Below the pieces are notes generated by a model. It did not search any database, had not been told where the DNA came from, and worked only from the letters and a program-made list of their open reading frames with translations. This document shows positions 4,471 through 62,336 of a stretch of 64,000 nt of DNA, in pieces. Within the stretch, counting starts at the first letter, position 1; each line of letters begins with the position of its first letter. The stretch comes from Vicinamibacteria bacterium (GTDB taxonomy: Bacteria > Acidobacteriota > Vicinamibacteria > Vicinamibacterales > JAENWD01), in contig CAVUPP010000020.1 of NCBI GenBank assembly GCA_963743245.1, positions 768,167 to 832,166 on the forward strand, read 5' to 3'. The translations under genes were made by a program, and so were the position numbers.

Positions 4471-6711
4471 CTAACTCTTCATCAAGGTGCTGCCAAACGG
4501 CAGGGTCCGCAGCCGACGTCCGGTCGCCGCGAAGATCGCATTGCCGAGTGCCGGCGCGAAGACTGGCAGGCCGGGTTCGCCGACGCCCGCCGGCGGCGCG
4601 TCGCTCTCGACCATGATGATCTCGATCTGCTTTGGCGCTTCCGGCATGCGCGCCAGCTCGATCGTGTCGAAGTTCGACTGCTCGGCCTGCCCCTGCTTGA
4701 ACGTCAGCCGCCCATGGACGGCGACGCTGATCCCCATGACCGCGGCACCCTCGAGCTGCGATCGCACGCGATCCTGATGAACGATCGTGCCACAGTCGAT
4801 CGCCGTAATCACGCGGGGGATTGAAATCCGGCCGTCGTCCGCGATCGCTACCTCGACCACGGTGCAGACGTAGGTCAGAAAGCTCCGATGCGCGGCTATA
4901 CCGAGTCCGTGGCCTTTCGGCAGCGGCGATCCCCAGCCGGCACGCTCCGAGGCGAGCTCGATGACCTTCCTGATGCGCGCCGTATCGAGGGGATACGCGT
5001 CGAGGGTCGCGCCGTAGTTCGCGTACTTCTCCGTCGTGCCCGGCATCACGTGCCGCGCGTCGCCGACGAGGTCCAGCAGAAAGTCTCTCGGATCGCGGCG
5101 GGCCGCCACCGCGAGCTCGTCCGCAAACGTACAGACCGCAAAGGCGTGCGGGATGTTCGAGACCGATCGGAACCATCCGATCCGCACGTGAGCCGTCGCT
5201 GCGCCCGATTCGCAGCGCAGATTCGGGATCGCGTACGGCACGTCCAGGAAGCCGAGGCCGAGCTCGCCGGCGTCGGGGTGCTCGACGTTCGGTGCAAACG
5301 TGGAGCCGATACTGGGGAACACGCTGCGGGCAAGCCAGCCGGTGACCTTGCCGTTCGCGTCCAGTGCGCCTTCCATATGTTGCGCGGTGACGGTGTGGTA
5401 GTACCCGTGCCGCACCTCGTCTTCCCGCGTCCAGATCACGCGAACCGGAGCGCCGACCTCTTTCGAAAGGAGCGCCGCTTCCACGCAGTAATCGGGCTTG
5501 GATTTCCGTCCGAAGCCTCCGCCCACCAACGTGACGTGGACGGCCACCTGCTCAGCCGGCAGCTTGAGCGCCTTCGCGACCTCGTCGCGTGCGCCCTGCG
5601 GATTCTGCGTGCACGTCCAGACCTCACAGCCCTTGTCGGTCACGTGCGCGAGCGCTGCCGGGGGCTCCATCGGCGTGTGGGCGAGGTGAGGCGCGTAGTA
5701 GTCCGCCGACACGACCTTGGCGGCGCTCTTGAGCGCCTGGTCCACGTCGCCTTCCTTGCGTACCACCACGCCAGGCTTCTTCGAGGTCTCGATGAGGGCC
5801 TTCGCGTAGGCGTCCGAGTCGTAGGTCGCGTTCGGGCCGTGATCCCATGTGATCTTGAGCGCGTCCCGGCCCTTGAGGGCGGCCCACGTGTTCGACGCGA
5901 TGACCGCCACACCACCAAGCGGCTGGAAGCCCGAGGGTGGCGGCGTGCCGGGCAGTTGCACGACGCGCTCAACGCCGGGGACCTTCAGCGCCTCTGACTG
6001 GTCGAACGCTGATACCTTGCCGCCGTACACGGGCGGTCGAGCGACGACCGCGTACTTCATTCCCGGCAGGCGGGCGTCGAAGCCGTATACAGCTTTGCCC
6101 TGCACGATATCGTCGCCGTCGACGATGGGCATCCCTTTGCCGATGTAGCGGAATTGTGCCTTTGGCTTGAGCGTGAGCGATGAGGCCGCTGGAACCGGAA
6201 GCGCGGCGGCGGCGTGGGCCAGCGCGCCATAGCCCAGAGCCCGTCCGGTCTTCTCGTGGACGACTTCGTGATTGTGTGCGTGCACTTCGCTGACCGCCAC
6301 ACCCCACGTGGTCGCGGCGGCCTGCTCGAGCATCGTACGCGCGCTCGCGCCGGCTTCGCGAAGCGGCTGCAGAAAGTCGCGGATGCTGTGGGATCCGTCC
6401 GTGTCCTGACTGCCGTACTTCTTGTCGCCGTCCGCCTGGATCACGCGGACGCGTGCCCAGTCCGCCTCGAGCTCGTCAGCCACGACCATGCTGGTGCTCG
6501 TGCGGATGCCCTGTCCCATCTCTGTCCGGTGCGAGACGATGGTCACGGTACCGGTGGGATCGATGGAGAGATACACGCTCGGCGAGAACACATCGTTGGC
6601 GGCCGCCGCGGCCCGGAAACGCGGCGCCATCGTGAGACCGAGGACGAGCCCGGTGCCGCCGAGCCCGATGGTTCCGAGGAACGTTCGCCGGCTGACGTTT
6701 TCGATAGCCAT
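4471..6711 (-). CDS. Molybdopterin-dependent oxidoreductase large subunit (IorB / aldehyde oxidase-xanthine dehydrogenase family)
   Basis: Carries a Tat signal (RRTFLGTIGLGGTGL), is 746 aa long, and lies immediately downstream of a 2Fe-2S subunit gene. Confidence 0.85.
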   Translation of the reverse strand: MAIENVSRRTFLGTIGLGGTGLVLGLTMAPRFRAAAAANDVFSPSVYLSIDPTGTVTIVSHRTEMGQGIRTSTSMVVADELEADWARVRVIQADGDKKYGSQDTDGSHSIRDFLQPLREAGASARTMLEQAAATTWGVAVSEVHAHNHEVVHEKTGRALGYGALAHAAAALPVPAASSLTLKPKAQFRYIGKGMPIVDGDDIVQGKAVYGFDARLPGMKYAVVARPPVYGGKVSAFDQSEALKVPGVERVVQLPGTPPPSGFQPLGGVAVIASNTWAALKGRDALKITWDHGPNATYDSDAYAKALIETSKKPGVVVRKEGDVDQALKSAAKVVSADYYAPHLAHTPMEPPAALAHVTDKGCEVWTCTQNPQGARDEVAKALKLPAEQVAVHVTLVGGGFGRKSKPDYCVEAALLSKEVGAPVRVIWTREDEVRHGYYHTVTAQHMEGALDANGKVTGWLARSVFPSIGSTFAPNVEHPDAGELGLGFLDVPYAIPNLRCESGAATAHVRIGWFRSVSNIPHAFAVCTFADELAVAARRDPRDFLLDLVGDARHVMPGTTEKYANYGATLDAYPLDTARIRKVIELASERAGWGSPLPKGHGLGIAAHRSFLTYVCTVVEVAIADDGRISIPRVITAIDCGTIVHQDRVRSQLEGAAVMGISVAVHGRLTFKQGQAEQSNFDTIELARMPEAPKQIEIIMVESDAPPAGVGEPGLPVFAPALGNAIFAATGRRLRTLPFGSTLMKS

Positions 6712-7166: not shown

Positions 7167-7195
7167 GATCGTGTCTCCAGACGAAGACGGCTTAT

Positions 7196-7225
7196 CAAAG
7201 CCCAAAGCCCAAAGCCTAACGCCTA
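7196..7225. repeat. Heptamer tandem array, AAAGCCC family
   Basis: Reads CAAAGCC CAAAGCC CAAAGCC TAACGCC TAC. It overlaps the esterase stop codon (the complement of CTA at 7223-7225). Confidence 0.85.
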
Positions 7226-8375: not shown

Positions 8376-8457
8376 TGTCGGATTCGTGTTCGTGTTCGTG
8401 TTCGTGTTCAGATTCGCGTCGGATTCGCGCTCGGATTCGTCTTCGAGTTCGGGCTCG
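8376..8457. repeat. Hexamer tandem array, GTGTTC/GGATTC family
   Basis: Reads GGATTC GTGTTC x4 AGATTC ...GGATTC...GGATTC GTCTTC GAGTTC GGGCTC. It sits in the divergent esterase/MFS spacer. Confidence 0.85.
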
Positions 8458-8505: not shown

Positions 8506-8534
8506 CACGAAACGAACACCAACACGAATACGAC
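8506..8534. repeat. Hexamer array in inverted orientation (GAACAC family)
   Basis: CACGAAACGAACACCAACACGAATACGAC is an imperfect reverse complement, about 24 nt long, of 8380-8411. Confidence 0.7.
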
Positions 8535-12713: not shown

Positions 12714-12776
12714 CCTGAACTGAACCCCGGAACCCTGGAACCCCGGAACTCCCGGAACCCCTGAACTCCCGGAACC
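12714..12776. repeat. Tandem array, GGAACCC family (8-9 nt period)
   Basis: Reads CTGAACTGAACCCCGGAACCCTGGAACCCCGGAACTCCCGGAACCCCTGAACTCCCGGAACC. It abuts the MBL gene's stop codon and the DUF1080 ribosome-binding site. Confidence 0.85.
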
Positions 12777-17800: not shown

Positions 17801-17948
17801 CGTCGAAGTGCGGGCCGAAGTCTACAACGCGCTCAACCGGGCCAACCTGGGACTGCCGGAAAGCTTCATCGACCGGCCCACGTTCGGACAGAGTGTGTCG
17901 GCTGATGCGCCGCGCCAGATTCAGATTGTGGGACGGTTCAACTTCTAG
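14829..17948 (+). CDS. TonB-dependent-receptor-like outer-membrane protein with an N-terminal CarboxypepD_reg domain
   Basis: Has a signal peptide starting at the ATG at 14829, a carboxypeptidase-regulatory-like beta-sandwich, a long beta-barrel region, and a C-terminal ...IQIVGRFNF. Confidence 0.8.
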   Translation: MLCLIRRFLFLLIVMSCPCVVGAQTATATLFIDAHDSAGAPLGGVSVRLANQSSGTARVVLTTHEGTAVVPLLPAGLYTATATLTGFKQAVVTDLRLDAAGKGTLALVLVPGAYTESVVVSADVSRLQPGGGAIGEVYDGRTLVMMPMDTRDFLQFTYQSPGAAPPAPGSRLSSEGNAGVNVSGAREAANNFLLDGTDNNDLFLNRLVATPSLDAIQEFTLVQNTYDAEYGRNAGAQVNVVLKSGSSDTHGSLFEYFRHEALDARGVFDPPDVDKPRFRRNQFGGTLGGPLPGIRGLYFSSVEGLTTSAAETRVTTVPSAAERAGDFSGSGKTLIDPFTGQPFPGNRIPMDRLDPTGSEVAALYPDPNRTGGQNFASSPLGSRDGVRVAVKTDHRLWHDTPLSLRYAYTSDDRQVPFPNGARNLPGFGIGVTDIGQNAAAGLSQVLSPHVLNELHVGWNRLHRENVPAASGTDQFLALGITGPALPLVDQGYPAFSVAGYEPLGDDPNLPVVRRTSTWHVSDSVTIERGRHLWKLGGEVRRYASDGFNHVYARGQIGFTGAFTGDALGDLLLGVPTFSILAANDNPQALRATSYNLFVQHDWRPTPRLTVNAGLRYDLNLPPVDAYDRMQVFDLATETLRPVGEDGVPRSGVATDWNNLAPRVAVSWQVPGRAALTLRGGVGVYYDSGTLIENSALYFNPPYFDLRLFAPFTEPLRLSNPFPIDQGSVPPASVNTLEPSFTTASTTQGSFGVEGRLRGVDLTARYVGSSGHHLVRRRNLNQPPPGPGPIDDRRSIAGYGDILLVEPAASSNYNALQLQAERQRATGLSFRAAYTWGKSIDDTSAFLPSSGNDNTPQDARRPEAERGLSDFDVRHRVSVAAVWPIPPGRWAWTEHWQVSAIFAAQSGRPFTPRVSVDNSNTGNNGGSFGYDRPNEVDPATAPSGAVTYEGRAFVMAPAYTFGDAGRNILIGPGLASLDLAIGRTFHLAGDRRVEVRAEVYNALNRANLGLPESFIDRPTFGQSVSADAPRQIQIVGRFNF

Positions 17949-18003
17949 AGTCGAAGGGTCGAAGAGTCAGCAAGGGTCGAAGAGTCAAGGGTCGCAAGGT
18001 CAG
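17949..18003. repeat. Tandem array, GTCGAAG family (about 8 nt period)
   Basis: AGTCGAAGGGTCGAAGAGTCAGCAAGGGTCGAAGAGTCAAGGGTCGCAAGGTCAG fills the whole convergent spacer from one stop codon to the other. Confidence 0.85.
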
Positions 18004-23154: not shown

Positions 23155-23245
23155 CCACGGTCCACGGCCCACCCTGCGGCGCACGGCACATGGCACACGG
23201 CTCAAGGCCCAAAGCCGAAAGCCCGAGGCCGATGGCCTGAAGGCT
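23155..23245. repeat. Heptamer tandem array (13 units) drifting into the AAAGCCC family
   Basis: Reads CCACGGT CCACGGC CCACCCT GCGGCGC ACGGCAC ATGGCAC ACGGCTC AAGGCCC AAAGCCG AAAGCCC GAGGCCG ATGGCCT GAAGGCT. Confidence 0.85.
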
Positions 23246-28883: not shown

Positions 28884-28959
28884 AACTCCAACTGCCAACT
28901 TCCAACCTCCAAAGCCCAGGGCCAAGAGCCCAAAGCCTAAAGCCCAAGGCCCAAAGCCC
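28883..28959. repeat. Heptamer tandem array (11 units), AAAGCCC family
   Basis: Reads CAACTCC AACTGCC AACTTCC AACCTCC AAAGCCC AGGGCCA AGAGCCC AAAGCCT AAAGCCC AAGGCCC AAAGCCC. Confidence 0.9.
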
Positions 28960-28964
28960 GTGTG

Positions 28965-30314: not shown

Positions 30315-30353
30315 GCTGGCGTTTGTAGGCGAACGCCGCGGGAAAAGCAAATC

Positions 30354-30430
30354 AGTCTTCGGTCTGCGGTCTACAGTCTGCGGGCAGACCGGCGACCGCA
30401 GACCGCAGACCGTAGACCGCAGACCGTATG
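30354..30430 (-). terminator. Inverted heptamer arrays (GTCTGCG/CGCAGAC family) forming a long imperfect hairpin with a U-rich tail on the minus strand
   Basis: AGTCTTC GGTCTGC GGTCTAC AGTCTGC gg GCAGACC GGCGACC GCAGACC GCAGACC GTAGACC GCAGACC. About 20 or more pairs are possible across 30354-30411. The minus-strand RNA then reads GAUUUGCUUUUCC. Confidence 0.55.
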
Positions 30431-33244: not shown

Positions 33245-33345
33245 GCCTGGGGCTTTGGGCTTTGGCCCTTGGGCCCACGAGGGTCCAAGAGTTGAAGGGT
33301 CCGCACAGTCGAAGAGCTGCGCCCCTGCGACCCCTTCGACTCGGG
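33245..33345. repeat. Composite array: GGGCTTT family followed by the GTCGAAG family with a small inverted repeat
   Basis: Reads GCCTGGG GCTTTGG GCTTTGG CCCTTGG GCCCACG, then GGGTCCAAGAGTTGAAGGGTCC...AGTCGAAG...CTTCGACT. Confidence 0.75.
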
Positions 33346-33450: not shown

Positions 33451-34972
33451 CTACGGGCGCGGGCTCCTTCGAGTATAGGAGCCTCGACCCGGAGGCGACA
33501 AGCGAATCGTCGGCGGCTCAATCGGCGCAAGATGCGGACTGAGGACGACCTCCGGAAAACCGGCCGACGAGGGCGGCGAGAAGAGCAGCCGCCATCGGCC
33601 CTCGCGCAGATAGCGGTCGAAGAAGGCCAGCGTGTAGGCGCTCAGCAGTGCTTCCATCCGCTGGCCGTCGATGCGGCCGAGCAGGCCCGCGGTCTCGAGA
33701 ATCGGCGCGACGAGACTTGCGTCAGAGAAGTTCCAGTGCCTCGCCCCCGTGACCTCGACGCGATACCGATCGCCAGTGGAACGTCCGTAGATTTCGTCGT
33801 TCACCGTGTTGCCCTCGCGTACGAAGTAGAGCAGCGGCACGCCGAGCGGCGTGGCCTCGGCCCGTCCGTGCTGACGTCCGTCCATGTTGAGCGCGGCCAC
33901 GCAGCGATCGTCGCGAAGGCAGAACTCTCCGGCCGCCGATCCGCCGAACGACATACCGAAGACGCCGATACGCGCGCGATCGAGGCGGTGCGCCAACAAT
34001 GCACTCGGCAAGCCCTGATCGCGCGAGGTTCCATCGTCGATGGCCTCGAAGTGATCGACGAGCCTTCCGATGTCCTGCACCCACAGCTCGAGACTCTGAT
34101 CGAGCAGGGGATGCGATGCGTCGCTCGACGACGTGCGTGATTCCCGCGCCTGAGCGAACACGGCTCTCATCCGCTGCGCATCGCCCTGCAGCGAGATGAC
34201 CATCGGGAAAGAGCAGTCCGGCACTCTCGAACGGATGGCCGACGCTGAAGACAATGAAGCCGTGGCTGGCGAGCTCTTCCATCTGTATCGTGTTCTGCCA
34301 GGGCGTCGAGCCGTACCCGTGCGAGAACACGAGCACCGGATAGCGCGGGTGCTCGTTCGTCAGCGGCGCGTCCGGGTAGCTGTGCGAGCGAATCGATCGA
34401 AGATGCGCGAGCGGATTGAGTCGAGGCAGGCCGAAGAGCCCCAGTGCCGCTGGTGCCACGACGGGCGCGTCTGGCCAGAACGCCTCCGGACGAGCGCCTG
34501 GCAGCGGCTTCGCCGGATACCACGCGAGGATCGGGAGGACGCGCCGTGCGCGGCCATCCGCTGCCAATGGATCGATCGGCGCACCATCGTCCACGATGAA
34601 GCGGACGCGTCCGACCGCGTTCGGTCCCGACGGCGCCGGCGGAACGAAGATGGGGACACCGACGGCGAGCGCGAGGGTAAGCGCGAGACACGTCGCCACA
34701 AGCAGCGTCCGCGCGATGGTCCAGACCTGCCGCCACCGAGATGACTCGGCGGGGACTGGCGAACGCCAGAGCCGGACGACCAGCCACGCAAGGACGGCGT
34801 ACGACGGTGCGAACTGCCATCGAGGCGACCCGAAGGCAGCCTGCAGGACGAGGCATCCGAGAGCCGCGCGCGCAAGCCAGCGCCACCAGTCGGCGGGACG
34901 CCGCGTTCGGGTCGGAGCGCTGAGCGCAGCGGGCACGATCGCCACGATCAGCAGAATGTCGAGTGGTTGCAT
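33451..34972 (-). CDS. Membrane-anchored alpha/beta hydrolase (PAF-acetylhydrolase / dienelactone-hydrolase-like); apparent 1-nt insertion
   Basis: The N-terminus has TM helices, followed by YPVLVFSHGYGS and GVFGMSFGG (nucleophile elbow). ORFs 33722-34972 and 33451-34254 join at about 34200-34208 (..LLFP|MVISLQGD..). Confidence 0.65.
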
Positions 34973-35578: not shown

Positions 35579-35647
35579 CGGTCTGCGGTCTACAGTCTGC
35601 GGTCTGCGGCTTACGAATACGAACCCGAACACGAATCCGAACACGAC
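35579..35647. repeat. Composite array: GTCTGCG heptamers followed by GAACAC hexamers
   Basis: Reads CGGTCTGCGGTCTACAGTCTGCGGTCTGCGG CTTAC GAATAC GAACCC GAACAC GAATCC GAACAC GAC. It fills the convergent spacer. Confidence 0.85.
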
Positions 35648-40260: not shown

Positions 40261-40848
40261 ATGGACACGCTGACCACACTCGGTCGCACGCTGGGATTTT
40301 CGTTCGCGGCCGGAATCAACCTGTACGCCACCGTTGCGATTCTCGGTCTGGCGTCCCGCTACGCGTGGGTTGACCTGCCGCCGGAGTATCAGGCGTTCAA
40401 CAATCCGTGGATCATCGGCATCGCGCTCGTCCTGTACGCGCTCGAGTTCGTGGCCGATAAGATCCCGTGGCTGGATTCACTCTGGGACGCGGTGCACACC
40501 GTCATCCGTCCGCTCGGCGGCGCCTTCATCGCCGTCAGCAGCGTGGGCCACGCCTCGCCCACGGCTCAAGTCATCGCCGCACTCGTCGGCGGCACGATGG
40601 CGGCGAGCAGTCACTTCACGAAAGCGAGCACTCGCGTCCTCGCCAACAGCAGCCCCGAGCCGTTTTCGAACTGGGCGCTGAGCCTCGGCGAGGACACCTT
40701 CGTCATCGGACTCGCCTTTCTCGCGCTCCGTCATCCGATCGCGGCGCTGACCGTCAGTCTCATGTCGGTGACGGTTATCGTTGTCTGCGCGGCGCTGCTC
40801 GTGAAGACGGTCAGACGGCGGTTTGCGAGAGCGAGGGCGGAGACATAG
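40261..40848 (+). CDS. DUF4126-family membrane protein
   Basis: Contains FAAGINLYATVAILGL...EFVADKIPWLDSLWDAVHTVIRPLGGA. Confidence 0.75.
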   Translation: MDTLTTLGRTLGFSFAAGINLYATVAILGLASRYAWVDLPPEYQAFNNPWIIGIALVLYALEFVADKIPWLDSLWDAVHTVIRPLGGAFIAVSSVGHASPTAQVIAALVGGTMAASSHFTKASTRVLANSSPEPFSNWALSLGEDTFVIGLAFLALRHPIAALTVSLMSVTVIVVCAALLVKTVRRRFARARAET

Positions 40849-40850
40849 GG

Positions 40851-40937
40851 GGCTTTGGGCGTTGGACTTTGGGCCTTAGGCGTTGGGTCTGGCTTTGGCC
40901 TTTTGGCGTTGGGCTTTGGCGTGGCTCAGGCGTTGCA
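40851..40937. repeat. Heptamer array, GGGCTTT orientation of the AAAGCCC family
   Basis: Reads GGCTTTG GGCGTTG GACTTTG GGCCTTA GGCGTTG GGTCTGG CTTTGGC CTTTTGG CGTTGGG CTTTGGC... Confidence 0.85.
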
Positions 40938-40948
40938 CTCGCTGGGGC

Positions 40949-41371
40949 ATGCGAGACTTCCGAAAGCTCCGGACGTACCAGCTTGCTGATGCGCTCGTCC
41001 TCACTGTCTACGACGTCACACGCGCCTTCCCGAGAGAAGAGCTGTTCGGCCTCACAAGACAGTTACGTCGGGCCGCCGTGTCTGTCCCGACCAACATCGT
41101 CGAAGGTTCTGCCCGACCAACCACGGGCGACTATCTACATTTCCTCAACATCGCCATGGGCTCGTCGGTCGAAACGGCCTATCTCGTTGGCCTGGCAGGT
41201 CGCGTAGGTATGCTAGACGGGCCCAAAGCCGACTCATTGCGCGAGCGATACTTTGAACTGAGCCGTCGGCTGCAGACGCAAATTGCTGAATTGCGCGCGC
41301 GAGCCGGGGCCGAAGCACTGCGTAAGCCCAACACCTCGCGAAACGTTAGGGCCCGGCCGGCAACGAGCTAA
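40949..41371 (+). CDS. Four-helix-bundle protein (23S rRNA intervening-sequence protein / Avd-like family)
   Basis: Reads MRDFRKLRTYQLADALVLTVYDVTRAFPREELFGLTRQLRRAAVSVPTNIVEGSAR. The ATG is at 40949. Confidence 0.85.
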   Translation: MRDFRKLRTYQLADALVLTVYDVTRAFPREELFGLTRQLRRAAVSVPTNIVEGSARPTTGDYLHFLNIAMGSSVETAYLVGLAGRVGMLDGPKADSLRERYFELSRRLQTQIAELRARAGAEALRKPNTSRNVRARPATS

Positions 41372-41380
41372 GCGCACGCC

Positions 41381-41428
41381 GAAGGCCCAACGCCTAGAGC
41401 CCAAAGCCAAGGCCAAAGCCAAGCGCCT
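41381..41428. repeat. Heptamer array, AAAGCCC orientation (inverted relative to 40851-40937)
   Basis: Reads GAAGGCC CAACGCC TAGAGCC CAAAGCC AAGGCCA AAGCCAA GCGCCTC. Confidence 0.85.
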
Positions 41429-41452
41429 CACTTAGGGCCGCGACTCTCTTTC

Positions 41453-41482
41453 TTGAGCCGGCGCCCGTGTCCGACGTATCCT
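41453..41482 (+). promoter_or_regulatory. Candidate sigma70 promoter of VWFA paralog 1
   Basis: TTGAGC-N18-TATCCT. The same hexamers and spacing are conserved upstream of paralog 2. Confidence 0.5.
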
Positions 41483-41523
41483 GATCTCGTCCAGCCCTGT
41501 TCTCCTCCCTATGGGGTGTCCCG

Positions 41524-43786
41524 GTGCGTACACGCGCGCAGTGGCTCCGCCAGGCGCGGTTCCATCGCCTTCTGACAGAAGCCGCCGTCGCCGTCCTGAT
41601 CCTCGTGATCGTCGCAGCCGTGAGTGTGCTCGGGCGGGCAGATCGGCAGGCGGCGGCTGCCGACGGGAAGCCGCAGCCGACAGGCCAGGCGCAGCCGACC
41701 ACGCAGCCGCGTCCGCCGTTCCGCGTGGGTGCGAACCTGGTCCGCGTGGACGTCTTCCCGACGAAAGACGGCAAGCCCGTGCGCGACTTGACCGCGGCCG
41801 ACTTCGACGTGCTCGAAGACGGCGTCCCGCAGAAGGTTGAGAGCTTCGAGCACGTCGAGATCAGCGGGCAGATTCCCACCGAAGAGCGCCGCGAGCCCAA
41901 CACGATGCGCGAAGCGCGCGCGATGGCCGAAGATCCGCGGAGCCGCATCTTCATCATCTTCCTCGACACCTATCACACCGAAGTAGCCGGCTCGCACCGG
42001 ATGCAGACGGTGCTCGAGCACCTGCTCGATCGGATCATAGGTCCGGACGATCTGTTCGGCGTGATGACGCCGGAGATGTCGGCCACCGACATCACGCTGT
42101 CGCGACGGACGGAAACCACGGAAGGGTTCCTGCACAAGTACTGGTATTGGGGACGGCGGGATCGGCTCGCGGACCGGGATCCGGTCGAGGCGATGTACGA
42201 GTCGTGCTATCCGGAGCAGGACACGCGCACGTGCCCGGATCCGAGAGATCCCACTGGCAAGAAGACGATCACCCAACAGAACACGTACCACTACGTTGCG
42301 CGCGAGATGATTCAACGCCGCCGCGAGAAACGCGTGCTCGATGCGCTCACCGATCTCAGCACGTATCTGCAGGGACTGCGCGAAGAGCGGAAAGCCGTGA
42401 TCGCCGTCAGCGATGGCTGGTTGCTGTTCCGGGAGAATCAGGCGCTGACGCGGATTGGCAACTGCGATCAGCCGCCGACGGGGCCGCAGATCGGAGTGGG
42501 TCCCGACGGGCGCATCACGAGTGACAAGCCGCACGCCGAAGGCAACTACTCACAGCAGACATGCGATACCGATCGGATGCACCTCGCACAGCTCGACAAC
42601 TGGCAGACGTTCCGGGACCTTCTCGATCGGGCGAACCGCGCCAACGTGAGCTTCTATCCCATCGATTCGCGGGGATTGCCTGCGTTTGATACGAGCATCG
42701 AGGAAGACACGCCGACGACGATCGGTGTGCCCGTGTACGTGGATCGTCAGATGCTCACGGCACGGATCGAGAATCTGCGGACGCTCGCCGACGCGACCGA
42801 TGGCCTCGCCGTCGTGGAGAACAACAACATCGAACTGGGCGTCAAGCGCATCGTCGACGATGTCAGCTCGTATTACCTGCTCGGCTACTACTCGACCAAC
42901 GCGAAGCTCGATGGACGCTTCCGCTCGATCAAGGTGCGCGTGAAACGGTCCGGTGTGGACGTCCGTGCGCGCCGGGGCTATAAGGCACCGACCGAAGAAG
43001 AGTTCACGCGCGGGCGTGAGATGACGGCGAAAGCCCAGGTGTCCGGTCCGCCACCGGCCTTCCAGACCGCGATGGCCTCGCTCGCCGCCGTGCGCAGCAA
43101 CTTTCGCTTCATCACCAGCGTGAGCTGGCTCGCCGCGCCGATCGACGACTCGGTGCCGGGCGCGAAGAGCCACGTGTGGATCGTCGGCGAGATGGACCAG
43201 GCGACGTCGAAAGGGCAGGAGTGGCTCGGCGGCGCCCAGGCCGAGGTGCTCCTCACTGCCGAGGACGGCGTCAAGATCGCCGAGCTCACGCAGCCTGTAC
43301 CCGCGCCCGTCCACATCGTCAGTGTCACGCTGCCCGATGTGCCGCTCGGTCCAGGTCGAGTACACGCTGCGGTTGCGCCTGAAGCCATCGGGCGGTGGCC
43401 TGCCGTTCCTGGATACCGTGCATTTTACGGTCGCCGACGCAGGCGAGCTCACGGGCAAGGCGCGACTGCTACGCCGTGGACTGTCCACCGGCGTCCAGTA
43501 CGTCGCCACGGCCGATCCACAGTTCAGACGTACGGACCGTTTGCGCGTCGAGATTCCGCTGCTGGGTGCGGTGGATGGGGCACGCGGCGAGCTGCTCAAC
43601 AAGACCGGCCAGGTCATGCCCGTGCCGGTCGAGGCGTCTACGCGTCGCGAAGATGCCGCACTGCAGTGGGCGAGTGCGGATGCGTTGCTGGCGCCGCTCG
43701 CGCCGGGCGACTACGCCATCCGGACGACCATCCAGCGCGGGACGACTACGCAGCAGATCCTGACGGCGTTCCGCATCGTGCCCTGA
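41524..43786 (+). CDS. Acidobacterial VWFA-family protein, paralog 1; 1-nt insertion at 43356
   Basis: Contains ANLVRVDVFPTKDGKPVRDLTAADFDVLEDG, IFIIFLDTYHT and VSFYPIDSRGL. Copy 1 has CCAGGTCGAG where copy 2 has CCAGGCGAG. The protein continues in ORF 43322-43786. Confidence 0.8.
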
Positions 43787-43807
43787 TCTCTCAACTCGGA
43801 TCTGGCC

Positions 43808-43837
43808 TTGAGCGCAGGCCCGCCTCCGACGTATCCT
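43808..43837 (+). promoter_or_regulatory. Candidate sigma70 promoter of VWFA paralog 2
   Basis: TTGAGC-N18-TATCCT. This is a duplicate of 41453-41482, including the shared CCGACGTATCCTGA stretch. Confidence 0.5.
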
Positions 43838-43876
43838 GAGAGCGCCAGCCCTGCTTCCCCTGTTTGGAGTGTCGCG

Positions 43877-46105
43877 GTGCGTACATGCGCCCAGTGGCTC
43901 CGCCAGGCGAGGTCCCATCGCCTTCTGATCCAGTCCTCCGGTGCCGTTCTCATCCTCCTAGTCGTCGCCGGTGTGAGCGCGCTCGCACGGGGCGATCGGC
44001 AGGCGCCGGCCACCAACGGTGCGCCGCCGAGCGGCCAGACGCAGGCGACGGCTCAGCCGCGTCCGCCGTTTCGTGCAGGAGCGAACCTGGTGCGCGTGGA
44101 TGTGTTCCCGATGAAGGACGGCAAGCCCGTGCGCGACCTGACGGCCGCTGACTTCGAAGTCTTCGAAGACGGCAAGCTGCAGAAGGTCGAAAGCTTCGAG
44201 CACGTCGAAATCAGCGGACAGGTTCCTCAGGACGAGCGGCGCGAGCCCAACACGGTGCGTGAAGCGCGCGCGATGGCCGAAGACTCGCGCAGCCGCATCT
44301 TCGTCGTATTTCTCGACACCTATCACACGGAGCTGGCCGGCTCGCACCGCATGCAGAAAGTGCTGGTCGATCTGCTCGATCGCATCATCGGCCCCGACGA
44401 CATGTTCGCGGTGATGACTCCGGAAATGTCGCCGAGCGACCTGGCACTCGCACGACGCACCGAGACCACAGCCGGAATGTTGTCGAAGTACTGGACGTGG
44501 GGGCGCCGCGATCAACCCGCGGACGTGGATCCGATCGAGCTGGAGTATCAGCACTGCTACCCGGAAACGGCGGTGGGCCGGTGCGACGAACCGTCCACCG
44601 CCGGCATGCCGCCTCGGGGCTTCTACAACGGAGTTTCGAAGGAGATGATCGCTCGGCGCCGCGAGCGGATGGTGCTCGACGCCCTTGGCGACCTGAGTAT
44701 GTACCTGGAGGGCCTCCGCGACGAGCGCAAGGCGGTCATCGCGATCAGCGATGGCTGGCTGCTCTATCGGCCGAATTCATCGTTGACGCGGCTCTCGCCA
44801 TGCGATCGTCCGTCGACCGGACCACGGCCGGTTGCGGGGGCGGATGGACGCATCGCGACCGCGGAGGGCACCTACGATCGGTGCGAAGCCGATCGCGGAA
44901 AGCTCGCGGAGCTCGACGACTGGCAGAAGTTCCAGGATCTACTCGACCGGGCCAACCGCGCCAACGTGAGCTTCTACCCGATCGACTCACGCGGACTGCC
45001 TGCGGCCGATACGCAGATCTACGAAGACACGCCGACGACGGTCGGCGTGCCGGTGTACCTCGACAAGGCGATGCTGACGACACGCATCGAGAACTTGCGG
45101 ACACTTGCCGACGCGACCGATGGTCTGGCCGTCGTCGAGAACAACAATCTTGAACGAGGCATCCACCGCATCGTGGACGACCTGACGTCGTACTACCTGC
45201 TGGGCTATTACTCCACCAACGCGAAGCTCGATGGACGCTTCCGCTCGATCAAGGTGCGTGTGAAGCGATCCGGCGTGGACGTCCGCGCACGGCGTGGCTA
45301 CAAGGCGGCAACAGAGGAAGAGATCACTCGCAGTCGTGAGATGAGCGCGAAGGTGCAGATCTCTGGACCTCCGCCGGCGTTCCAGACCGCGATAGCCTCG
45401 CTCGCCGCCGTGCGCAGCAACTTCCGCTTCATTACCAGCGTGAGCTGGCTCGCCGCTCCGATCGACGGCTCGGTACCGGGCGCGAAGAGCCACGTCTGGC
45501 TCGTCGGCGAAATGGACCAGGCGACCTCGAAAGGGCAGGAGTGGCTCGGCGGCGCACAGGCCGAGGTGCTCCTCACCGCCGAGGACGGCGTCAAAATCGC
45601 CGAACTGACCCAACCGGTGCCCGCGCCCGTCCGCATCGTCAGTGTCACGCTGCCCGACGTGCCGCTCGGTCCAGGCGAGTACACGCTGCGGTTGCGCCTG
45701 AAGCCATCGGGCGGTGGCCTGCCGTTCTTGGATACGGTGCACTTCACCGTCGCCGACGCGGGCGATCTCACCGGCAAGGCGCGACTGTTACGCCGTGGAC
45801 TGTCGACAGGCGTCCAGTACGTCGCCACCGCCGATCCGCAGTTCCGACGGACGGACCGCTTGCGCGTCGAGATTCCGCTGCTGGGTGCGGTGGATGGGGC
45901 ACGCGGTGAGCTGCTCAACAAGACCGGCCAGGTCATGCCCGTGCCGGTCGAGGCGTCTACCCGTCGCGAGGATGCCGTACTGCAGTGGGCGAGCGCGGAT
46001 GCGTTGTTAGCGCCACTGGCGCCGGGCGACTACGCCATCCGGACGACCATCCAGCGCGGGACGACTACGCAGCAGATTCTGACGGCGTTCCGCATCGTGC
46101 CCTGA
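43877..46105 (+). CDS. Acidobacterial VWFA-family protein, paralog 2
   Basis: The GTG at 43877 is homologous to the paralog 1 start (VRTCAQWLRQAR). By eye, the C-terminal half is more than 90 percent identical to paralog 1 at the nucleotide level. Confidence 0.85.
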   Translation: MRTCAQWLRQARSHRLLIQSSGAVLILLVVAGVSALARGDRQAPATNGAPPSGQTQATAQPRPPFRAGANLVRVDVFPMKDGKPVRDLTAADFEVFEDGKLQKVESFEHVEISGQVPQDERREPNTVREARAMAEDSRSRIFVVFLDTYHTELAGSHRMQKVLVDLLDRIIGPDDMFAVMTPEMSPSDLALARRTETTAGMLSKYWTWGRRDQPADVDPIELEYQHCYPETAVGRCDEPSTAGMPPRGFYNGVSKEMIARRRERMVLDALGDLSMYLEGLRDERKAVIAISDGWLLYRPNSSLTRLSPCDRPSTGPRPVAGADGRIATAEGTYDRCEADRGKLAELDDWQKFQDLLDRANRANVSFYPIDSRGLPAADTQIYEDTPTTVGVPVYLDKAMLTTRIENLRTLADATDGLAVVENNNLERGIHRIVDDLTSYYLLGYYSTNAKLDGRFRSIKVRVKRSGVDVRARRGYKAATEEEITRSREMSAKVQISGPPPAFQTAIASLAAVRSNFRFITSVSWLAAPIDGSVPGAKSHVWLVGEMDQATSKGQEWLGGAQAEVLLTAEDGVKIAELTQPVPAPVRIVSVTLPDVPLGPGEYTLRLRLKPSGGGLPFLDTVHFTVADAGDLTGKARLLRRGLSTGVQYVATADPQFRRTDRLRVEIPLLGAVDGARGELLNKTGQVMPVPVEASTRREDAVLQWASADALLAPLAPGDYAIRTTIQRGTTTQQILTAFRIVP

Positions 46106-46127: not shown

Positions 46128-48254
46128 GTGTCGCGTGAATGGGCCGCCCTCGCGGTGGCGTCGGTCGTCGGTCTCGCGCCCTGGATGCTGGCGGCCGGAT
46201 CCGGGCAGACCCAGCCCGCTGCACCACAGGCTGGCCCGGTCCAGCCTGGTCAGGCTCCGCCCGGTCCATCGCAGCCCTTCCACGTCGAAACCAACTACGT
46301 TCGAGTGGACGCGTACCCGACCGCAGACGGCCGGCCTGTTCTCGATCTGACGGCCAATGATTTCGAGGTCCTCGAAGACGGCGTTCCGCAACGGATCGAG
46401 ACCTTTGAACACGTCCAGATTCGAGACGTCGTCGTGGATACCGATCGGCGCGATCCGTCGACCATCGAGCAAGCACGGACCCAGGCGACCAATCCACGCG
46501 CGCGTGTGTTTGTCATCTTCCTGGATGGGTACCAGACGCCGGTCGAAGGCTCGTACCGCATCCAGCACGTGCTGGCCACGATGCTGGATCGGTTGATCGG
46601 TCCCGACGATCTGTTTGCGGTAATGACTCCGCGGATGTCGGCGAGCGAGATCGTGTTCGCGCGCCGCACCGAGACGATCGAAGGAGAGCTGCAGCGCTAC
46701 TGGTACTGGGGGCGTGGCGATTCGATGGTCCAGCAGGATCCGGAGGACCAGCAGATCATGCTGTGCTACGGCGACAGCGCTCCGGGGTCGAGGAACGATC
46801 CCGGCGTGGACGCCAGAGCGCTCATCGCACGCCGCCACGAAAAGCTGGTGATGGATGCGCTGACCGACCTCTCGAGATATCTCCGCGGCGTGCGGGACGA
46901 GCGCAAGGCCGTGATTGCCGTGACCAGCGGATGGCTGCTCTACCAGCCGGACAACAGCCTACTGAAGGGGCCGGGCGTCGTTGGTGGTTCGTCGCCAGGC
47001 ACGATCGGTACGGGTCCCGATGGACGGTTGACGACCGATCGCGCCGGCGCCTACCAGAGCGGCTCGCCGCACGACTGCGAGCGGATCCGGTTCGACCTGG
47101 CGAACGTGGACAACCACGAGGCGTTCTACCGCATGCTCGACATCGCCAACAGAGCGAATGTCAGCTTCTATCCAATCGACGCGGCGGGGCTCAGGGCATC
47201 GGACCATTTGATGGACTTGCCGCAGGACGTCGGCCAACGGATCCTGGAGACACAACTCGCGACCGTTCGGTCGCTGGCTGAGAACACCGACGGCGTGCCG
47301 ATTCTCGACACCAACGATCTCGGTGCCGGGGCCCGCCGCATCGTGGACGATCTCTCTTCGTACTACTTGCTCGGGTATTACTCCACGAATGCCAGGCCAG
47401 ACGGCAAGTTCCACAAAATCACGGTCCGCGTGAAACGATCAGGCGTTGACGTGCGCGCGCGTCGAGGCTACCTGGCGCCATCCGTGTCGGAGCTCGCCGC
47501 AGCTCGCGAGGCGGCGTTGAAGCCCGCGACGGCCAAGCCGCCAGACGAGATCGAACGAGCGATCGCTCAACTGGCGCACTTCAGGCCCGATCCGCACATG
47601 CTCGCTCGCGCCAGTCTCGTCACCGACGGCGGAACGCCCGCAAGTGGCCGGCTCTGGATGGTCGCGGAACTCGATCCCGCATCAGCGAAGGCGGCAGAAT
47701 GGTGGCGCGGCGGCACGGCAGACATTGTCATCTCGACGGCGAGTGGTGTGCTGGTGACGAGCAGTTCGAAGCCGTTTGCTGCCGGCGCACGCACTGTCAC
47801 TCTCGGACCGATTGCGGGGACGTTTCAGCCCGGCCATTACGTTGCCGTCGTCCGGCTGACGCCGACAGGAGAAGGCACTCCGCTGACGGCAGAGGCTCAG
47901 CTCGACACGACGCGCGATGGCGCGAACACGCCACTGCTGTTCCGGCGAACGCGCCCTGGACCTGCGCAATTCACTCCGACCGCGACGCCACTGTTCAGAC
48001 GCACCGACATTCTTCGTGCCGACGTGCCGCTCGCGACCGTCGCGGACACGGTTGACGTCTCACTGCTCGATCGGCGCGGACAGCGCATGCCTCTCGCCGT
48101 CGCCGGCAGTCTTCGCACCGACGACGCCATGTGGGCGTCCGCCGATCTCGATCTTGCGCCGCTCGCGCCCGGCGACTACGTGCTGAAGATCACCGTGAAG
48201 AACGGTACCGCCACGCGAGACAGCCTCGTCGCCTTCCGCATCGTTCCGCAATAG
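46128..48254 (+). CDS. Acidobacterial VWFA-family protein, paralog 3 (more diverged)
   Basis: Has a GAGAGG ribosome-binding site 6 nt before the GTG. Contains TNYVRVDAYPTADGRPVLDLTANDFEVLEDG, VFVIFLDGYQT and VSFYPIDAAGL. Confidence 0.85.
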   Translation: MSREWAALAVASVVGLAPWMLAAGSGQTQPAAPQAGPVQPGQAPPGPSQPFHVETNYVRVDAYPTADGRPVLDLTANDFEVLEDGVPQRIETFEHVQIRDVVVDTDRRDPSTIEQARTQATNPRARVFVIFLDGYQTPVEGSYRIQHVLATMLDRLIGPDDLFAVMTPRMSASEIVFARRTETIEGELQRYWYWGRGDSMVQQDPEDQQIMLCYGDSAPGSRNDPGVDARALIARRHEKLVMDALTDLSRYLRGVRDERKAVIAVTSGWLLYQPDNSLLKGPGVVGGSSPGTIGTGPDGRLTTDRAGAYQSGSPHDCERIRFDLANVDNHEAFYRMLDIANRANVSFYPIDAAGLRASDHLMDLPQDVGQRILETQLATVRSLAENTDGVPILDTNDLGAGARRIVDDLSSYYLLGYYSTNARPDGKFHKITVRVKRSGVDVRARRGYLAPSVSELAAAREAALKPATAKPPDEIERAIAQLAHFRPDPHMLARASLVTDGGTPASGRLWMVAELDPASAKAAEWWRGGTADIVISTASGVLVTSSSKPFAAGARTVTLGPIAGTFQPGHYVAVVRLTPTGEGTPLTAEAQLDTTRDGANTPLLFRRTRPGPAQFTPTATPLFRRTDILRADVPLATVADTVDVSLLDRRGQRMPLAVAGSLRTDDAMWASADLDLAPLAPGDYVLKITVKNGTATRDSLVAFRIVPQ

Positions 48255-48445
48255 CCGAGGCCGCGACGCTGGCGAGGCCGGCGCTTCGTGACAGCCACAT
48301 TTACACCCTTCACAGTCGTTGCGCGTTGAGACCGATCGGTCAGGCGCGTTTGTGTTGGATTCGCGGCTGCAGGCCGTTGGATGACGTGGCAGCACGATTG
48401 CACAGCTTCGGGCGCACCCGGCACGACACGACCCACCAGGCAATC

Positions 48446-48506
48446 GATCGATACGACTCGACTCGACTGATTCGATTCGACTGATTCGATTCGACCGACC
48501 CGACTG
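48446..48506. repeat. Tandem array, CGATTCGACT family (14-nt unit, equal to 2x7)
   Basis: Reads CGATACG ACTCGAC TCGACTG ATTCGAT TCGACTG ATTCGAT TCGACCG ACCCGAC TG. Confidence 0.8.
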
Positions 48507-49960: not shown

Positions 49961-50059
49961 GGTCTAACTCTGGCAGTCTACGGTCTTCAGTCTGCGGTCC
50001 GCGTGTGGCAGCGGACGGCGTCGTGGCAGCCGAAGACCGTAGACTGAAGACTGCGGACC
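49961..50059. repeat. Inverted heptamer arrays (GTCTGCG family) between convergent genes; candidate bidirectional terminator
   Basis: AGTCTACGGTCTTC (49975-49988) is the perfect complement of GAAGACCGTAGACT (50032-50045). The flanking units are GGTCTAA, AGTCTGC and GGTCCGC on one side, and GAAGACT and GCGGACC on the other. Confidence 0.7.
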
Positions 50060-50061
50060 GA

Positions 50062-51213
50062 TCACGATCCCCCGAGTGTGAACGACAACGTCCAGGGCTT
50101 GAGCGGCGCGCCATCAGTCCCCGTGATGCCCTCGGCGAGCTCGACGACGACGATGCGGAAGCGTTCGAGCGGTGTCGCGAACTGGATGTTGAGCACGCGG
50201 GCTGCGGGATCGTACGTGAGGATCGGCTCGATACGCGGCGGCTGTGGCTCGCCACGCTCCGAGGACTGTTGTGCTGAGTAGCCGACGCGGATGTGGCCTT
50301 TCAGCGTCTCGGGATCGATGTCCCGTGAGAACTGCACGCGGACTCGCGTATTCAGCGGGACGTCGGTTTCGTCCTGCGTAGGCGCGCTGAAGAGGATCTC
50401 GGGCGAGATGGGTGGTGGAGGCGGAGCGGGCGCTTCCAGCGATACCTCTTTCTGCGCCGGGACTTCGTTGAGCGTCTCGGCGTCGATCCACACGAGGCCG
50501 CGGGCGGTCTTCACGACGCCGCTCACTTCGAGCCAGCGCCTCGTATCGATTCGCGAATCGGGGTTCATGACCCAACCGTGACCCTTGGATTGTTTCCCGA
50601 TCACCCAGAGCGCGGCATCGCCGGACTTGACGACGAACTCGCCTTTCCCCTGTGCGATCGGAGGAGCCTGCGGCAGATCGCCGTAGAGATTGCGTCCCCG
50701 GAACTGGCCGGTAACGGTGACCTTCTGATCCACGTAACGGAGCGGATCGAGGGCGAGCGCCCGGACACTGGGCGCCGTCAAGGGATCGGCACGTTCGAAA
50801 CTCGTTGCACGTAACACGACGACCTCGCCCTGGCGAGGCCAGCGATCCGCCGTGTCGACGCCGAGTTGGTGCAGATCGACACCGGACAGGCGCGGATCGT
50901 TCTGTTCGAGCCGTCCGATGTCGAGCACTTCGCCACGAACGTAGTACTCACCGGCCCCGGTGGGAAGGTGCTCGCGCGTCAGTAGACGCAGCGTCTCGTC
51001 CCCCGAAGCGACGGCAGGATGCGTCTCGATGTCCTTGATCTCACCGCGGATGAGCACCGGCTGCGAGTGGTAGAAGCCGGGAAACGTGTGAATGGCCGTG
51101 ACTGTGGCCACACGGCGCGTACCCGGCTGCGCACTGGCGATGCAAGGCAATCCGAGCAGCACGACCAGGAGCAACGTGCCGGAAACGAGGTGTCGTGTCA
51201 CCGAAAGGCGCAT
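50062..51213 (-). CDS. Secreted hypothetical protein with a C-terminal SbsA-Ig/Big_5-like domain
   Basis: Has a signal peptide. The C-terminus reads PTQDETDVPLNTRVRVQFSRDIDPETL...LAEGITGTDGAPL. Its start lies 3 nt after the corrected OPT stop codon. Confidence 0.6.
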   Translation of the reverse strand: MRLSVTRHLVSGTLLLVVLLGLPCIASAQPGTRRVATVTAIHTFPGFYHSQPVLIRGEIKDIETHPAVASGDETLRLLTREHLPTGAGEYYVRGEVLDIGRLEQNDPRLSGVDLHQLGVDTADRWPRQGEVVVLRATSFERADPLTAPSVRALALDPLRYVDQKVTVTGQFRGRNLYGDLPQAPPIAQGKGEFVVKSGDAALWVIGKQSKGHGWVMNPDSRIDTRRWLEVSGVVKTARGLVWIDAETLNEVPAQKEVSLEAPAPPPPPISPEILFSAPTQDETDVPLNTRVRVQFSRDIDPETLKGHIRVGYSAQQSSERGEPQPPRIEPILTYDPAARVLNIQFATPLERFRIVVVELAEGITGTDGAPLKPWTLSFTLGGS

Positions 51214-53950: not shown

Positions 53951-54485
53951 AAAAGCCGTCCGACCATCGTCTTCGCGCCGCGTCCCCACGCGATCAGGGG
54001 CTGCGGCACTCACGCACGTCGCTCAGGATGGCTCGGTGCAGATGGTGGACGTGGCGGCGAAAGCGGTGACCGCTCGCGAAGCCATCGCCGCTGGACACGT
54101 CACCGTCAACGCATCAGCGCGCCGGCTCGTCCGGCAGGGGCAGATCAAGAAGGGGAATCCCCTCGAAGTGGCGCGCGTGGCGGGCATCCTGGCGGCCAAG
54201 CGTACCGCCGAGATCATTCCGCTCTGCCATCCACTCCCGCTCAGCCACGTCGCGATCGATATCGCGCCGGTGAAAGATGGTTATCGCATCACCGCGACCG
54301 TGCGCACGACGGCACAGACCGGCGTCGAGATGGAAGCGCTGACGGCCGTGTCAGCCGCGGCCCTGACCGTCTACGACATGCTCAAGGCCGTGGATCGCGA
54401 GATGGTGATCGGTGAGATCTGTTTGCTCGAGAAGCGAGGTGGACGCACCGGAGAGTACGTGCGGGGCCAAAGGCCAAAGGCCTAA
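53925..54485 (+). CDS. moaC: Cyclic pyranopterin monophosphate synthase MoaC
   Basis: Contains MVDV..K..T.R.A and IIPLCHPLPLSHV...TGVEMEALTAVSAAALTVYDM. An alternative start at 53940 is possible. The last codons and the stop codon lie inside a repeat array. Confidence 0.88.
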   Translation: MKALHMRRKKAVRPSSSRRVPTRSGAAALTHVAQDGSVQMVDVAAKAVTAREAIAAGHVTVNASARRLVRQGQIKKGNPLEVARVAGILAAKRTAEIIPLCHPLPLSHVAIDIAPVKDGYRITATVRTTAQTGVEMEALTAVSAAALTVYDMLKAVDREMVIGEICLLEKRGGRTGEYVRGQRPKA

Positions 54486-54506
54486 AGCCCAGACCCAAAG
54501 CCTACG
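54465..54506. repeat. Heptamer array, AAAGCCC family
   Basis: Reads GGCCAAA GGCCAAA GGCCTAA AGCCCAG ACCCAAA GCCTAC. It spans the stop codons of the convergent moaC and CDF genes. Confidence 0.85.
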
Positions 54507-62266: not shown

Positions 62267-62336
62267 GTGGCCAAGGGCCAGGGTAAGGCGTCCCAGCCAG
62301 CGCCCGAAAGCCTAAAGCCCAAAGCCTAGAGGCTCT
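62267..62336. repeat. Heptamer array, AAAGCCC family
   Basis: Reads GTGGCCA AGGGCCA GGGTAAG GCGTCCC AGCCAGC GCCCGAA AGCCTAA AGCCCAA AGCCTAG AGGCTCT. It contains the stop codon of the convergent GT gene. Confidence 0.85.

Follow-up and report, generated by a model that had tools for sequence, protein, structure and literature searches.

We find that genes of the PF05635 family, exemplified here by one in a 64-kb window (the whole stretch of DNA analysed, 65% G+C) from a Vicinamibacteria bacterium, are generally bracketed by tandem heptamer arrays that share a core and are inverted with respect to each other, and it is this class-level generalisation that we regard as the new and interesting part. 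PF05635 is a very large family, known mainly as the open reading frame (ORF) of rRNA intervening sequences, through its homology to Avd, and as an oddity in cas operons. In the window, a gene of this family, which encodes a four-helix-bundle protein of the S23p type, lies at 40949-41371 between an upstream array of GGGCTTT-like units (G-type) and a downstream array of their reverse complements (C-type), in the spacer between a DUF4126 gene and a cluster of VWFA-type genes. A first-pass annotation of the window had described the gene and both arrays, with their coordinates, in just this way, and all of the elements that it listed are present. The reading we favour, to which we would give an even chance, is that 40850-41428 is an intervening-sequence-type cassette residing in an ordinary intergenic spacer, in which the S23p gene occupies the loop formed by a heptamer-array hairpin. 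Below, L-numbers denote compared loci and P-numbers homologous proteins.

Inverted heptamer arrays around PF05635 genes

A family sample of 80 metagenomic loci, retrieved via an alignment of 40 homologues and spanning 41-61% identity and all base compositions, shows a heptamer array before the start codon and its reverse complement after the stop codon in nearly all loci. Local alignment of the upstream flank to the reverse complement of the downstream flank gives a median score of 29 across the family, compared to 14 in shuffles, 15 at other loci and 15 in the direct orientation. This flank complementarity exceeds the 99th percentile of locus-matched displaced pseudo-genes in 69% of 59 metagenomic loci (Mann-Whitney p = 1e-21) and the 99th percentile of shuffles in 49 of 69, and a second, independent sample of 38 IMG/VR loci gives 23/31 (74%) above the 99th percentile in the displaced-control test. 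The inverted-array architecture is thus shown to be family-wide and not peculiar to the window. Other copies of the gene without array flanks would have told against the first-pass annotation; inverted array flanks are found at other members of the family in both samples and on cyanobacterial plasmids.

The arrays themselves are short and closely placed, with a median length of 30 nt (~4 units) and median gaps of 4 nt from the stop codon to the downstream array and 26 nt from the upstream array to the start codon. The density of period-7 arrays is 4.4 per kb up to 200 nt from the gene and 0.34 per kb farther out, a 13-fold enrichment, and the inverted pairs that surround the gene are G-type first in 50 cases and C-type first in 9. 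Units vary by lineage, and common to all is a core, A-G-(G/C)-C-T, accompanied by two variable positions, with an information content of 5.56 bits in phase-registered units against a null of 3.46 ± 0.08. The arm duplex energy across the family is -63, compared to -46.5 for shuffles (p = 2e-10).

The cassette is found in a range of other genomic contexts. On the finished plasmid pNPUN01 of Nostoc punctiforme, GGGTGTG units lie upstream and CACACCC units downstream of the gene, and inverted arrays of an 8-mer variant flank the gene on both sides on a finished Gemmatirosa plasmid. In pANA02 of Anabaena sp. 90 (L169) the gene has cas6 and cas4 as its neighbours, and the flanking units are GGTGACA on the upstream and TGTCACC on the downstream side; in pPg_01 of Pseudanabaena (L171), where the gene again stands between cas6 and cas4, the nearest arrays run in the same direction, and a reverse-complement array is found further upstream. 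The flanking units at these two sites are wholly unlike (GGTGACA in L169, AAAGCTA/AAAGCCA in L171), and the upstream arrays extend to ~270 nt. A 23S_rRNA_IVP-type gene inside cas operons has been described previously (PMC3936711). Many IMG/VR cassettes have phage genes on both sides. Four loci (L097, L127, L153 and L106) consist of 6-20 tRNA genes in an array, with G-first heptamer-array hairpins as the spacers and the four-helix-bundle gene in a hairpin loop or between two hairpins; the gene is antisense in these tRNA arrays, and its location close to tRNA-Gln, tRNA-Ser(cga) and tRNA-Asn is conserved.

In the low-GC loci L110, L130, L135 and L148, the heptamer arms are bounded by a conserved outer inverted repeat, GTAACTAnTCAGG ... 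CCTGAnTAGTTAC, which is followed in L130 and L135 by T-rich sequence; this outer repeat looks like either defined element termini or a terminator stem.

The features of the window locus are as follows.

40261-40848, plus strand: DUF4126 gene, the left neighbour (PF13548, E = 6e-55), with its stop codon 1 nt ahead of the left arm
40850-40937, no strand assigned: left arm, a degenerate tandem heptamer array of G-type (Tandem Repeats Finder; repeat families D1 and D4; inverted repeats I1-I7)
40922-40936, plus strand: sigma-54-like -24/-12 element, TGGCTC-N5-TTGC, overlapping the inner end of the left arm (an unproven lead)
40949-41371, plus strand: four-helix-bundle protein gene of the S23p / 23S rRNA intervening-sequence protein family (PF05635, TIGR02436)
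41309-41335, no strand assigned: degenerate C-type repeat-like stretch in the C-terminal tail of the gene (inverted repeat I6, direct repeat D5)
41376-41428, no strand assigned: right arm, a C-type (reverse-complement) array (inverted repeats I1-I5 and I7; Tandem Repeats Finder; fold pairing)
41524-43839, plus strand: first of three tandem VWFA-type (TIGR03436) genes, the right neighbour (TIGR03436, E = 1.2e-45)

Tandem Repeats Finder calls the left array over 40850-40919 (period 7, 10.3 copies, consensus GGGCTTT), with decay towards 40937 and individual units that include GGGCTTT, GGGCGTT, GGACTTT, GGGCCTT and AGGCGTT. The right array starts 5 nt after the stop codon of the gene and reads CGAAGGC CCAACGC CTAGAGC CCAAAGC followed by two 6-mers; it is more degenerate than the left, and only 41401-41423 is called by the same program, with a period of 6 or 12. 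Across the gene, the arms form an inverted repeat of 46 nt with 76% complementarity (40872-40917 with 41382-41427), and further inverted repeats between them measure 33 nt at 82% and 24 nt at 88%. The two arms have in common an 11-mer, TAGGCGTTGGG at 40877-40887 with its complement CCCAACGCCTA at 41386-41396, which confirms the shared inverted-repeat sequence reported for the flanks in the first pass. The upstream flank aligns to the reverse complement of the downstream flank with a score of 44, compared to ~14 in shuffles (z = 14.5), and in RNA folds of 40846-41432, minimum-free-energy and centroid alike, the two arms join in a long terminal stem (z = -2.7). The arm complementarity is fully explained by one unit family arrayed in opposite orientations, and the match of the left arm to unlinked arrays at 866-913 and 28887-28960 is as good as that to the right arm of the cassette. 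Owing to the palindromic form of the hairpin, whichever way a gene is oriented in the loop, the arm upstream of it is the G-type one, which is purine-rich and often ends in AGGAG.

The three VWFA-type paralogues stand in tandem at 41524-43839, 43808-46105 and 46128-48254; the first and second, which have an overlap of 32 nt, have long, near-identical C-terminal stretches in common. The TIGR03436 type of these genes points to Acidobacteriota. An Rfam search of the 64-kb window finds no rRNA gene, with a single tRNA as the only match, and no match at E <= 1 at the cassette locus. Scans of 40600-41700 for sigma-70 promoters and intrinsic terminators find none.

The gene and the DUF4126-VWFA junction

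The ORF at 40949-41371 comprises 140 codons and a stop codon. Its product matches PF05635, the sole Pfam domain of the protein, over profile positions 1-105 of 106 (E = 2.4e-29; 102.1 bits, cut-off 33.8), and also matches TIGR02436 (96.5 bits, cut-off 24). The closest solved relative is XCC0516 of Xanthomonas (PDB 2gsc; E = 5e-19, residues 6-119), so that the initial assignment to the four-helix-bundle (23S-IVS / Avd-like) class is right; Avd itself was not retrieved at E 0.01 in the structure-database search with the window protein. PDB entry 2gsc contains five chains, and XCC0516 has been reported to be a homopentamer (PMC4990558). The window protein has a calculated isoelectric point (pI) of 10.8, and the G+C content at third codon positions (GC3) of its gene, 0.66 versus 0.79 ± 0.03 across the genes of the window, still marks the gene as compositionally foreign.

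The window protein has 712 homologues, and in the 40-homologue alignment R41, S45, N49, E52 and G53 show no or almost no variation; a conserved polar motif, R-x3-S-x3-N-x2-E(G), is part of the motif of Zhang & Ye 2013 that is quoted in PMC3936711. The same alignment reveals that a C-terminal tail of ~20 codons in the window protein is missing from most homologues, which typically are 118-124 residues long. In database ORF calls, translated heptamer arrays appear as false N- or C-terminal extensions such as GFGLWALGFGRWALG and PPKPKA, and extensions of this origin are seen in P0005, P0010, P0023, P0030 and P0036. ORF callers thus turn arrays into spurious protein sequence, a practical point for anyone who uses these gene models.

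A sigma-54-like element with one mismatch to TGGCAC-N5-TTGC has its GC 12 nt ahead of the ATG, and the cassette may possess its own promoter of this kind. An element with 12-14 nt spacing was scored in L001 (about 239-255), L150, L131 and L147 and read by eye in L164 and L162; L088 is also among the loci with a TGGCNC-N5-TTGC element. This pattern precedes the gene in 6/72 loci, all of them high-GC relatives, compared to 2/72 in each of two control scans, one of the opposite strand of these regions and one of the downstream flanks. A GC positioned 12-14 nt before the ATG would produce a leaderless or nearly leaderless mRNA.

A DUF4126 protein scan gave 80 Vicinamibacterales loci (L002-L081), all of which keep the order CarD, acyltransferase, DUF4126, and 0/80 of which have the four-helix-bundle gene. 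Searches of these loci (~0.85 Mb) with tblastn and a clade hidden Markov model (HMM) likewise find no gene of this clade, and the same two methods find no second copy in the window, which has one. In 24 related loci DUF4126 is followed directly by VWFA, with no intervening gene and a junction that is usually free of arrays. The nearest homologues of the window protein, P0002 to P0005, are all at the DUF4126-VWFA junction (L001, L162, L163 and L164/L165), and in these five related genomes the gene is flanked by a G-type upstream arm and a C-type downstream arm of the GGGCKTT unit family. All relatives with the gene at this locus (5/5) therefore have inverted arms, which bears out the first-pass annotation on a point where arms that were absent or not inverted would have told against it.

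Relative to DUF4126 and VWFA, the gene runs antisense in 5/5 of these genomes and in sense in the window only, so the cassette has been inverted between its arms. No relative found is closer to the window than L162 (92% DUF4126 identity). L002, with 91% DUF4126 identity to the window, aligns to L162 in two blocks and lacks 453 bp, comprising the inner left arm, the gene, the promoter-like element and the innermost bases beside the right arm; only the outer stubs of the arms are left in L002, a pair of G-type units directly adjoining four C-type ones. Since L002 simply skips 453 bp of L162, its empty site is evidently a deletion footprint and not a virgin target. The simplest account of these alignments is a three-step history, with one acquisition in the ancestor of the sub-clade, inversion in the window lineage and deletion in L002; in the same account, the inversion would be the product of recombination between the inverted arms. 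The breakpoints of both the inversion and the L002 deletion fall inside the arms. Two separate insertions into one site, in opposite orientations, would be less parsimonious given five antisense orthologues and a 453-bp deletion derivative, and we set this idea aside.

These comparisons refine two earlier proposals. A gene-free spacer between DUF4126 and VWFA of the sort anticipated in the first pass does exist, in L002, but as the remnant of a deletion and not as an unoccupied insertion site. The idea of an inserted cassette with arrays at its boundaries is supported, but the insertion is not recent, having been inherited within the sub-clade, inverted in the window lineage and deleted in L002.

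Several features of individual relatives are worth recording. In L162, positions 459-461 form an in-frame TAG at codon 96 of the orthologue, with homology that continues past the stop, and this may reflect either a pseudogene or a sequencing error. L164 alone has an additional 164-aa ORF without a Pfam match (5531-6025) between the cassette and DUF4126, and L163 has one further GGGCTTT-type array 2.4 kb from the cassette.

Readings of the cassette

If 40850-41428 is an intervening-sequence-type cassette, the arms in a read-through RNA from either strand would pair as an imperfect duplex of ~25-50 bp that encloses the ORF. RNase III could cut this arm stem, by analogy with the rRNA intervening sequence of Coxiella. 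A cut in the stem would separate the insert from the host transcripts and thereby insulate them, which could explain residence at low harm in operons (those of cas included), tRNA arrays, rRNA and phage genomes. In DNA, the same arms might act as substrates for recombination. The core and the 7-nt period would call for an additional, sequence-specific reader, for which the basic protein is the first candidate.

Several observations weigh against this picture. There is no G-U signature of selection for a stem in one RNA strand, with the sense arm duplex the more stable in 35 loci versus 32 for the antisense (p = 0.92); the missing asymmetry is expected if the stem works on both strands, yet it adds no support at the RNA level. 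Complementarity of an arm to its own partner is 13.8, compared to 12.4 for non-partner arms of the same unit within a locus (p = 0.18). No array at all is found by a strict detector in 13/61 loci, and in a few loci the arrays before and after the gene run in the same direction. Neither the conserved core nor the 7-nt period is a requirement of RNase III, which leaves room for a sequence-specific reader. The precedent for RNase III processing comes from rRNA copies. The conserved feature is the unit family together with its inverted topology, and not base-pair-specific complementarity; we had considered selection on stem pairing as such and dropped this claim after the partner-specificity test came out null. 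A G-quadruplex reading of (GGGCTTT)n was also set aside, as the units of most lineages have only GG or AG, e.g., AGGCTGT and AGACTGT.

An arm complements its partner no better than it does unlinked arrays of the same unit, which itself points to a sequence-specific reader, and a protein that is basic, has a reportedly pentameric relative and is encoded by a gene always linked to arrays is the obvious candidate. In a different model, similar to REP (repetitive extragenic palindromic)/RAYT or TRAP, that we consider possible but unlikely, the arrays are binding sites for a four-helix-bundle oligomer, about one 7-nt unit per subunit; the gene would be flanked by its own sites, and gene-less arrays of the same unit would be other targets or products. 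The AG(G/C)CT core conserved across phyla, with the last two positions lineage-variable, the strict 7-nt period with ~4-5 units per array, and arms that are not partner-specific are all in keeping with such a system, as is a protein with the charge and reported homopentameric state given above (PMC4990558). So is the recurrence of the unit: that of the cassette is found again in 44/66 distant arrays within the same loci, ~10 further GGGCTTT-type arrays are present in the window, and L163 has its one, a ratio of one gene to many arrays like that of RAYT and REPIN. Ralph and McClelland's proposal, cited in PMC4990558, of an intervening-sequence ORF that codes for a mobility component also fits such a system. 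On the other hand, no catalytic or sequence-specific nucleic-acid-binding activity is known for the PF05635 family, and the Vicinamibacterales loci contain 269 period-7 arrays in ~0.85 Mb, a density of 0.31 per kb, with no gene of the clade, even though a single copy elsewhere in each genome would be enough; these 269 arrays also match the core weakly, at 4.05 bits versus a null of 3.73. A broader and still more doubtful proposition is that AG(G/C)CT heptamer arrays and S23p-type four-helix-bundle proteins constitute one cross-phylum protein-repeat system, with an oligomer reading ~4-5 7-mers and its gene residing within one of the system's own array hairpins; if true, a single system would cover the cyanobacterial short tandemly repeated repetitive (STRR) elements, the Beggiatoaceae TAACTGA and Geobacter heptanucleotide elements, the hairpins of tRNA-array spacers and rRNA intervening sequences. 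Binding of the arrays by the protein can be layered on the cassette-hairpin reading that we favour; the two models are mutually compatible and are not separable in silico.

Other explanations fare less well. A programmed invertible switch, with the arms as recombination sites and flipping that controls the gene or the downstream VWFA genes, is improbable: the window is sense and L162 antisense at 92% DUF4126 identity with breakpoints in the arms, and inverted repeats are present as in an inverton, yet Pfam finds no recombinase domain in the neighbouring genes within ~10 kb, only 1/6 genomes is flipped, and the arms are imperfect (76-89%) and unequal in length. The cassette may moreover bring its own promoter-like element, and switching makes little sense in phage and tRNA-array contexts. 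Coincidence, in which the gene landed in an array-rich Vicinamibacterales spacer with no link between gene and arrays, is very improbable. Period-7 arrays do occur there at 0.31-0.48 per kb, many spacers consist of an array, a loop and an inverted array, and the unit of the arms is the commonest in the window; against this stand the same bracket in unrelated phyla, base compositions and contexts, the 13-fold local enrichment, and the array-free state usual at the DUF4126-VWFA junction of gene-less relatives. As for an Avd-type accessory gene of a diversity-generating retroelement, PF05635 reportedly resembles Avd and is common near such retroelements (PMC10053308), but Pfam finds no reverse transcriptase (RVT) among the genes from 28965 to 53731, ~10 kb on each side (33451-34254, 41524-43839 and 46128-48254 have no Pfam match, and a minus-strand ORF at ~50070-51040 was unscanned). 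Nor is there a long direct repeat of the template/variable type in 40700-41600, and the structure search returns XCC0516 and not Avd. The probability of this reading is negligible, and a retroelement role is for practical purposes ruled out.

Related systems and gene-less arrays

The closest counterpart is the 23S intervening sequence of Coxiella burnetii (helix 45), in which an S23p ORF occupies the loop of a 28-bp terminal stem that is cut by RNase III; 2-3 tandem GACAGAT heptamers, strain-variable in number, immediately precede the ORF, and the first of these repeats has an RNase III cut site at its start (PMC4990558). The same source cites RNase III cutting for Leptospira too. The window cassette resembles these ORF-bearing intervening sequences in its S23p / PF05635 ORF, the location of the ORF in the loop of a stem, its terminal inverted repeats and a total size of ~0.4-0.75 kb. 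It differs from them in that it lies between DUF4126 and VWFA genes in a window with no rRNA gene, its arms consist wholly of tandem heptamers that also fill other spacers, it may have a sigma-54-like promoter, and inversion and deletion variants exist.

REP/REPIN elements with RAYT genes reportedly have (Nunvar 2010; Bertels & Rainey 2011) a usually single-copy gene flanked by inverted short repeats that are dispersed intergenically, often as hairpin-forming doublets, and the cassette is similar in these respects. Unlike a RAYT gene, the window gene does not encode an HUH (Y1) transposase, with PF05635 as its sole domain, and tandem 7-mers with a 5-base core stand in contrast to the REP palindromes of about 20-35 nt; action of the protein on the repeats is conjectural. 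Closer in form are the cyanobacterial STRR, Beggiatoaceae TAACTGA, and Geobacter GGACCGG and MTYCTGA elements, which are also intergenic arrays of ~2-6 tandem 7-mers. Several of these units fit NGRCYKN. These heptamer elements have lineage-specific units and are at times paired on opposite strands (PMC4679880, PMC2700814), and a term search of these two papers finds no mention of PF05635 genes. The cassette protein also reportedly shares distant four-helix-bundle homology with Avd (PMC10053308). It belongs, unlike Avd, to the XCC0516 clade, with no reverse transcriptase or template/variable repeat found near its gene. The Avd assembly is pentameric.

We could not find this type of cassette described in the searched literature, from which most subscription journals were excluded and in which PF05635 genes are tied to flanking heptamer arrays only in the single Coxiella description. 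Its parts are known as scattered pieces, namely the Coxiella heptamers, 23S_rRNA_IVP genes in cas loci and in rRNA insertions of the Candidate Phyla Radiation, and the arrays of Beggiatoaceae, cyanobacteria and Geobacter. A fixed non-coding architecture provides a testable handle on the protein or transcript, through array binding and RNase III processing, and links the origin of rRNA intervening sequences, which were first reported ~1990, to a general cassette of chromosomes, phages and tRNA arrays. It also offers a candidate explanation for the intergenic heptamer arrays of cyanobacteria, Beggiatoaceae and Geobacter. In practical terms, the arms drive local inversions and deletions, which is relevant to synteny analysis of metagenome-assembled genomes.

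Gene-less arrays are widespread in the window. Those of the GGGCTTT / CAAAGCC type are found at 865-913, 7194-7225, 23177-23224, 28887-28960, 33245-33272, 54463-54489 and 62304-62331; most are of a single orientation, and most, when read in the sense direction, are G-type and follow straight after a stop codon. A second unit family, AGACCGC / AGACTGT, fits the shared core and occurs at 30352-30428 and 49976-50058, and also at 35579-35612, as gene-less inverted pairs in the opposite order, with the C-type arm first. The pair at 49976-50058 is positioned between two convergent genes, like a bidirectional terminator that has no T-run.

Intergenic arrays of other periods are found at 8383-8445 with 8506-8533, 12722-12776, 17947-17999 and 48444-48505, with units that include the 6-mer TTCGTG and its inverted partner CACGAA, the 8-mers GAACCCCG and GTCGAAGG, and the 5-mer CGACT. 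In L003-L081, the spacer after DUF4126 commonly consists of a tandem 6-8-mer array, a loop and an inverted array, as in L009, L015, L016, L035, L047, L048, L051, L052 and L066, with a different unit in every genome.

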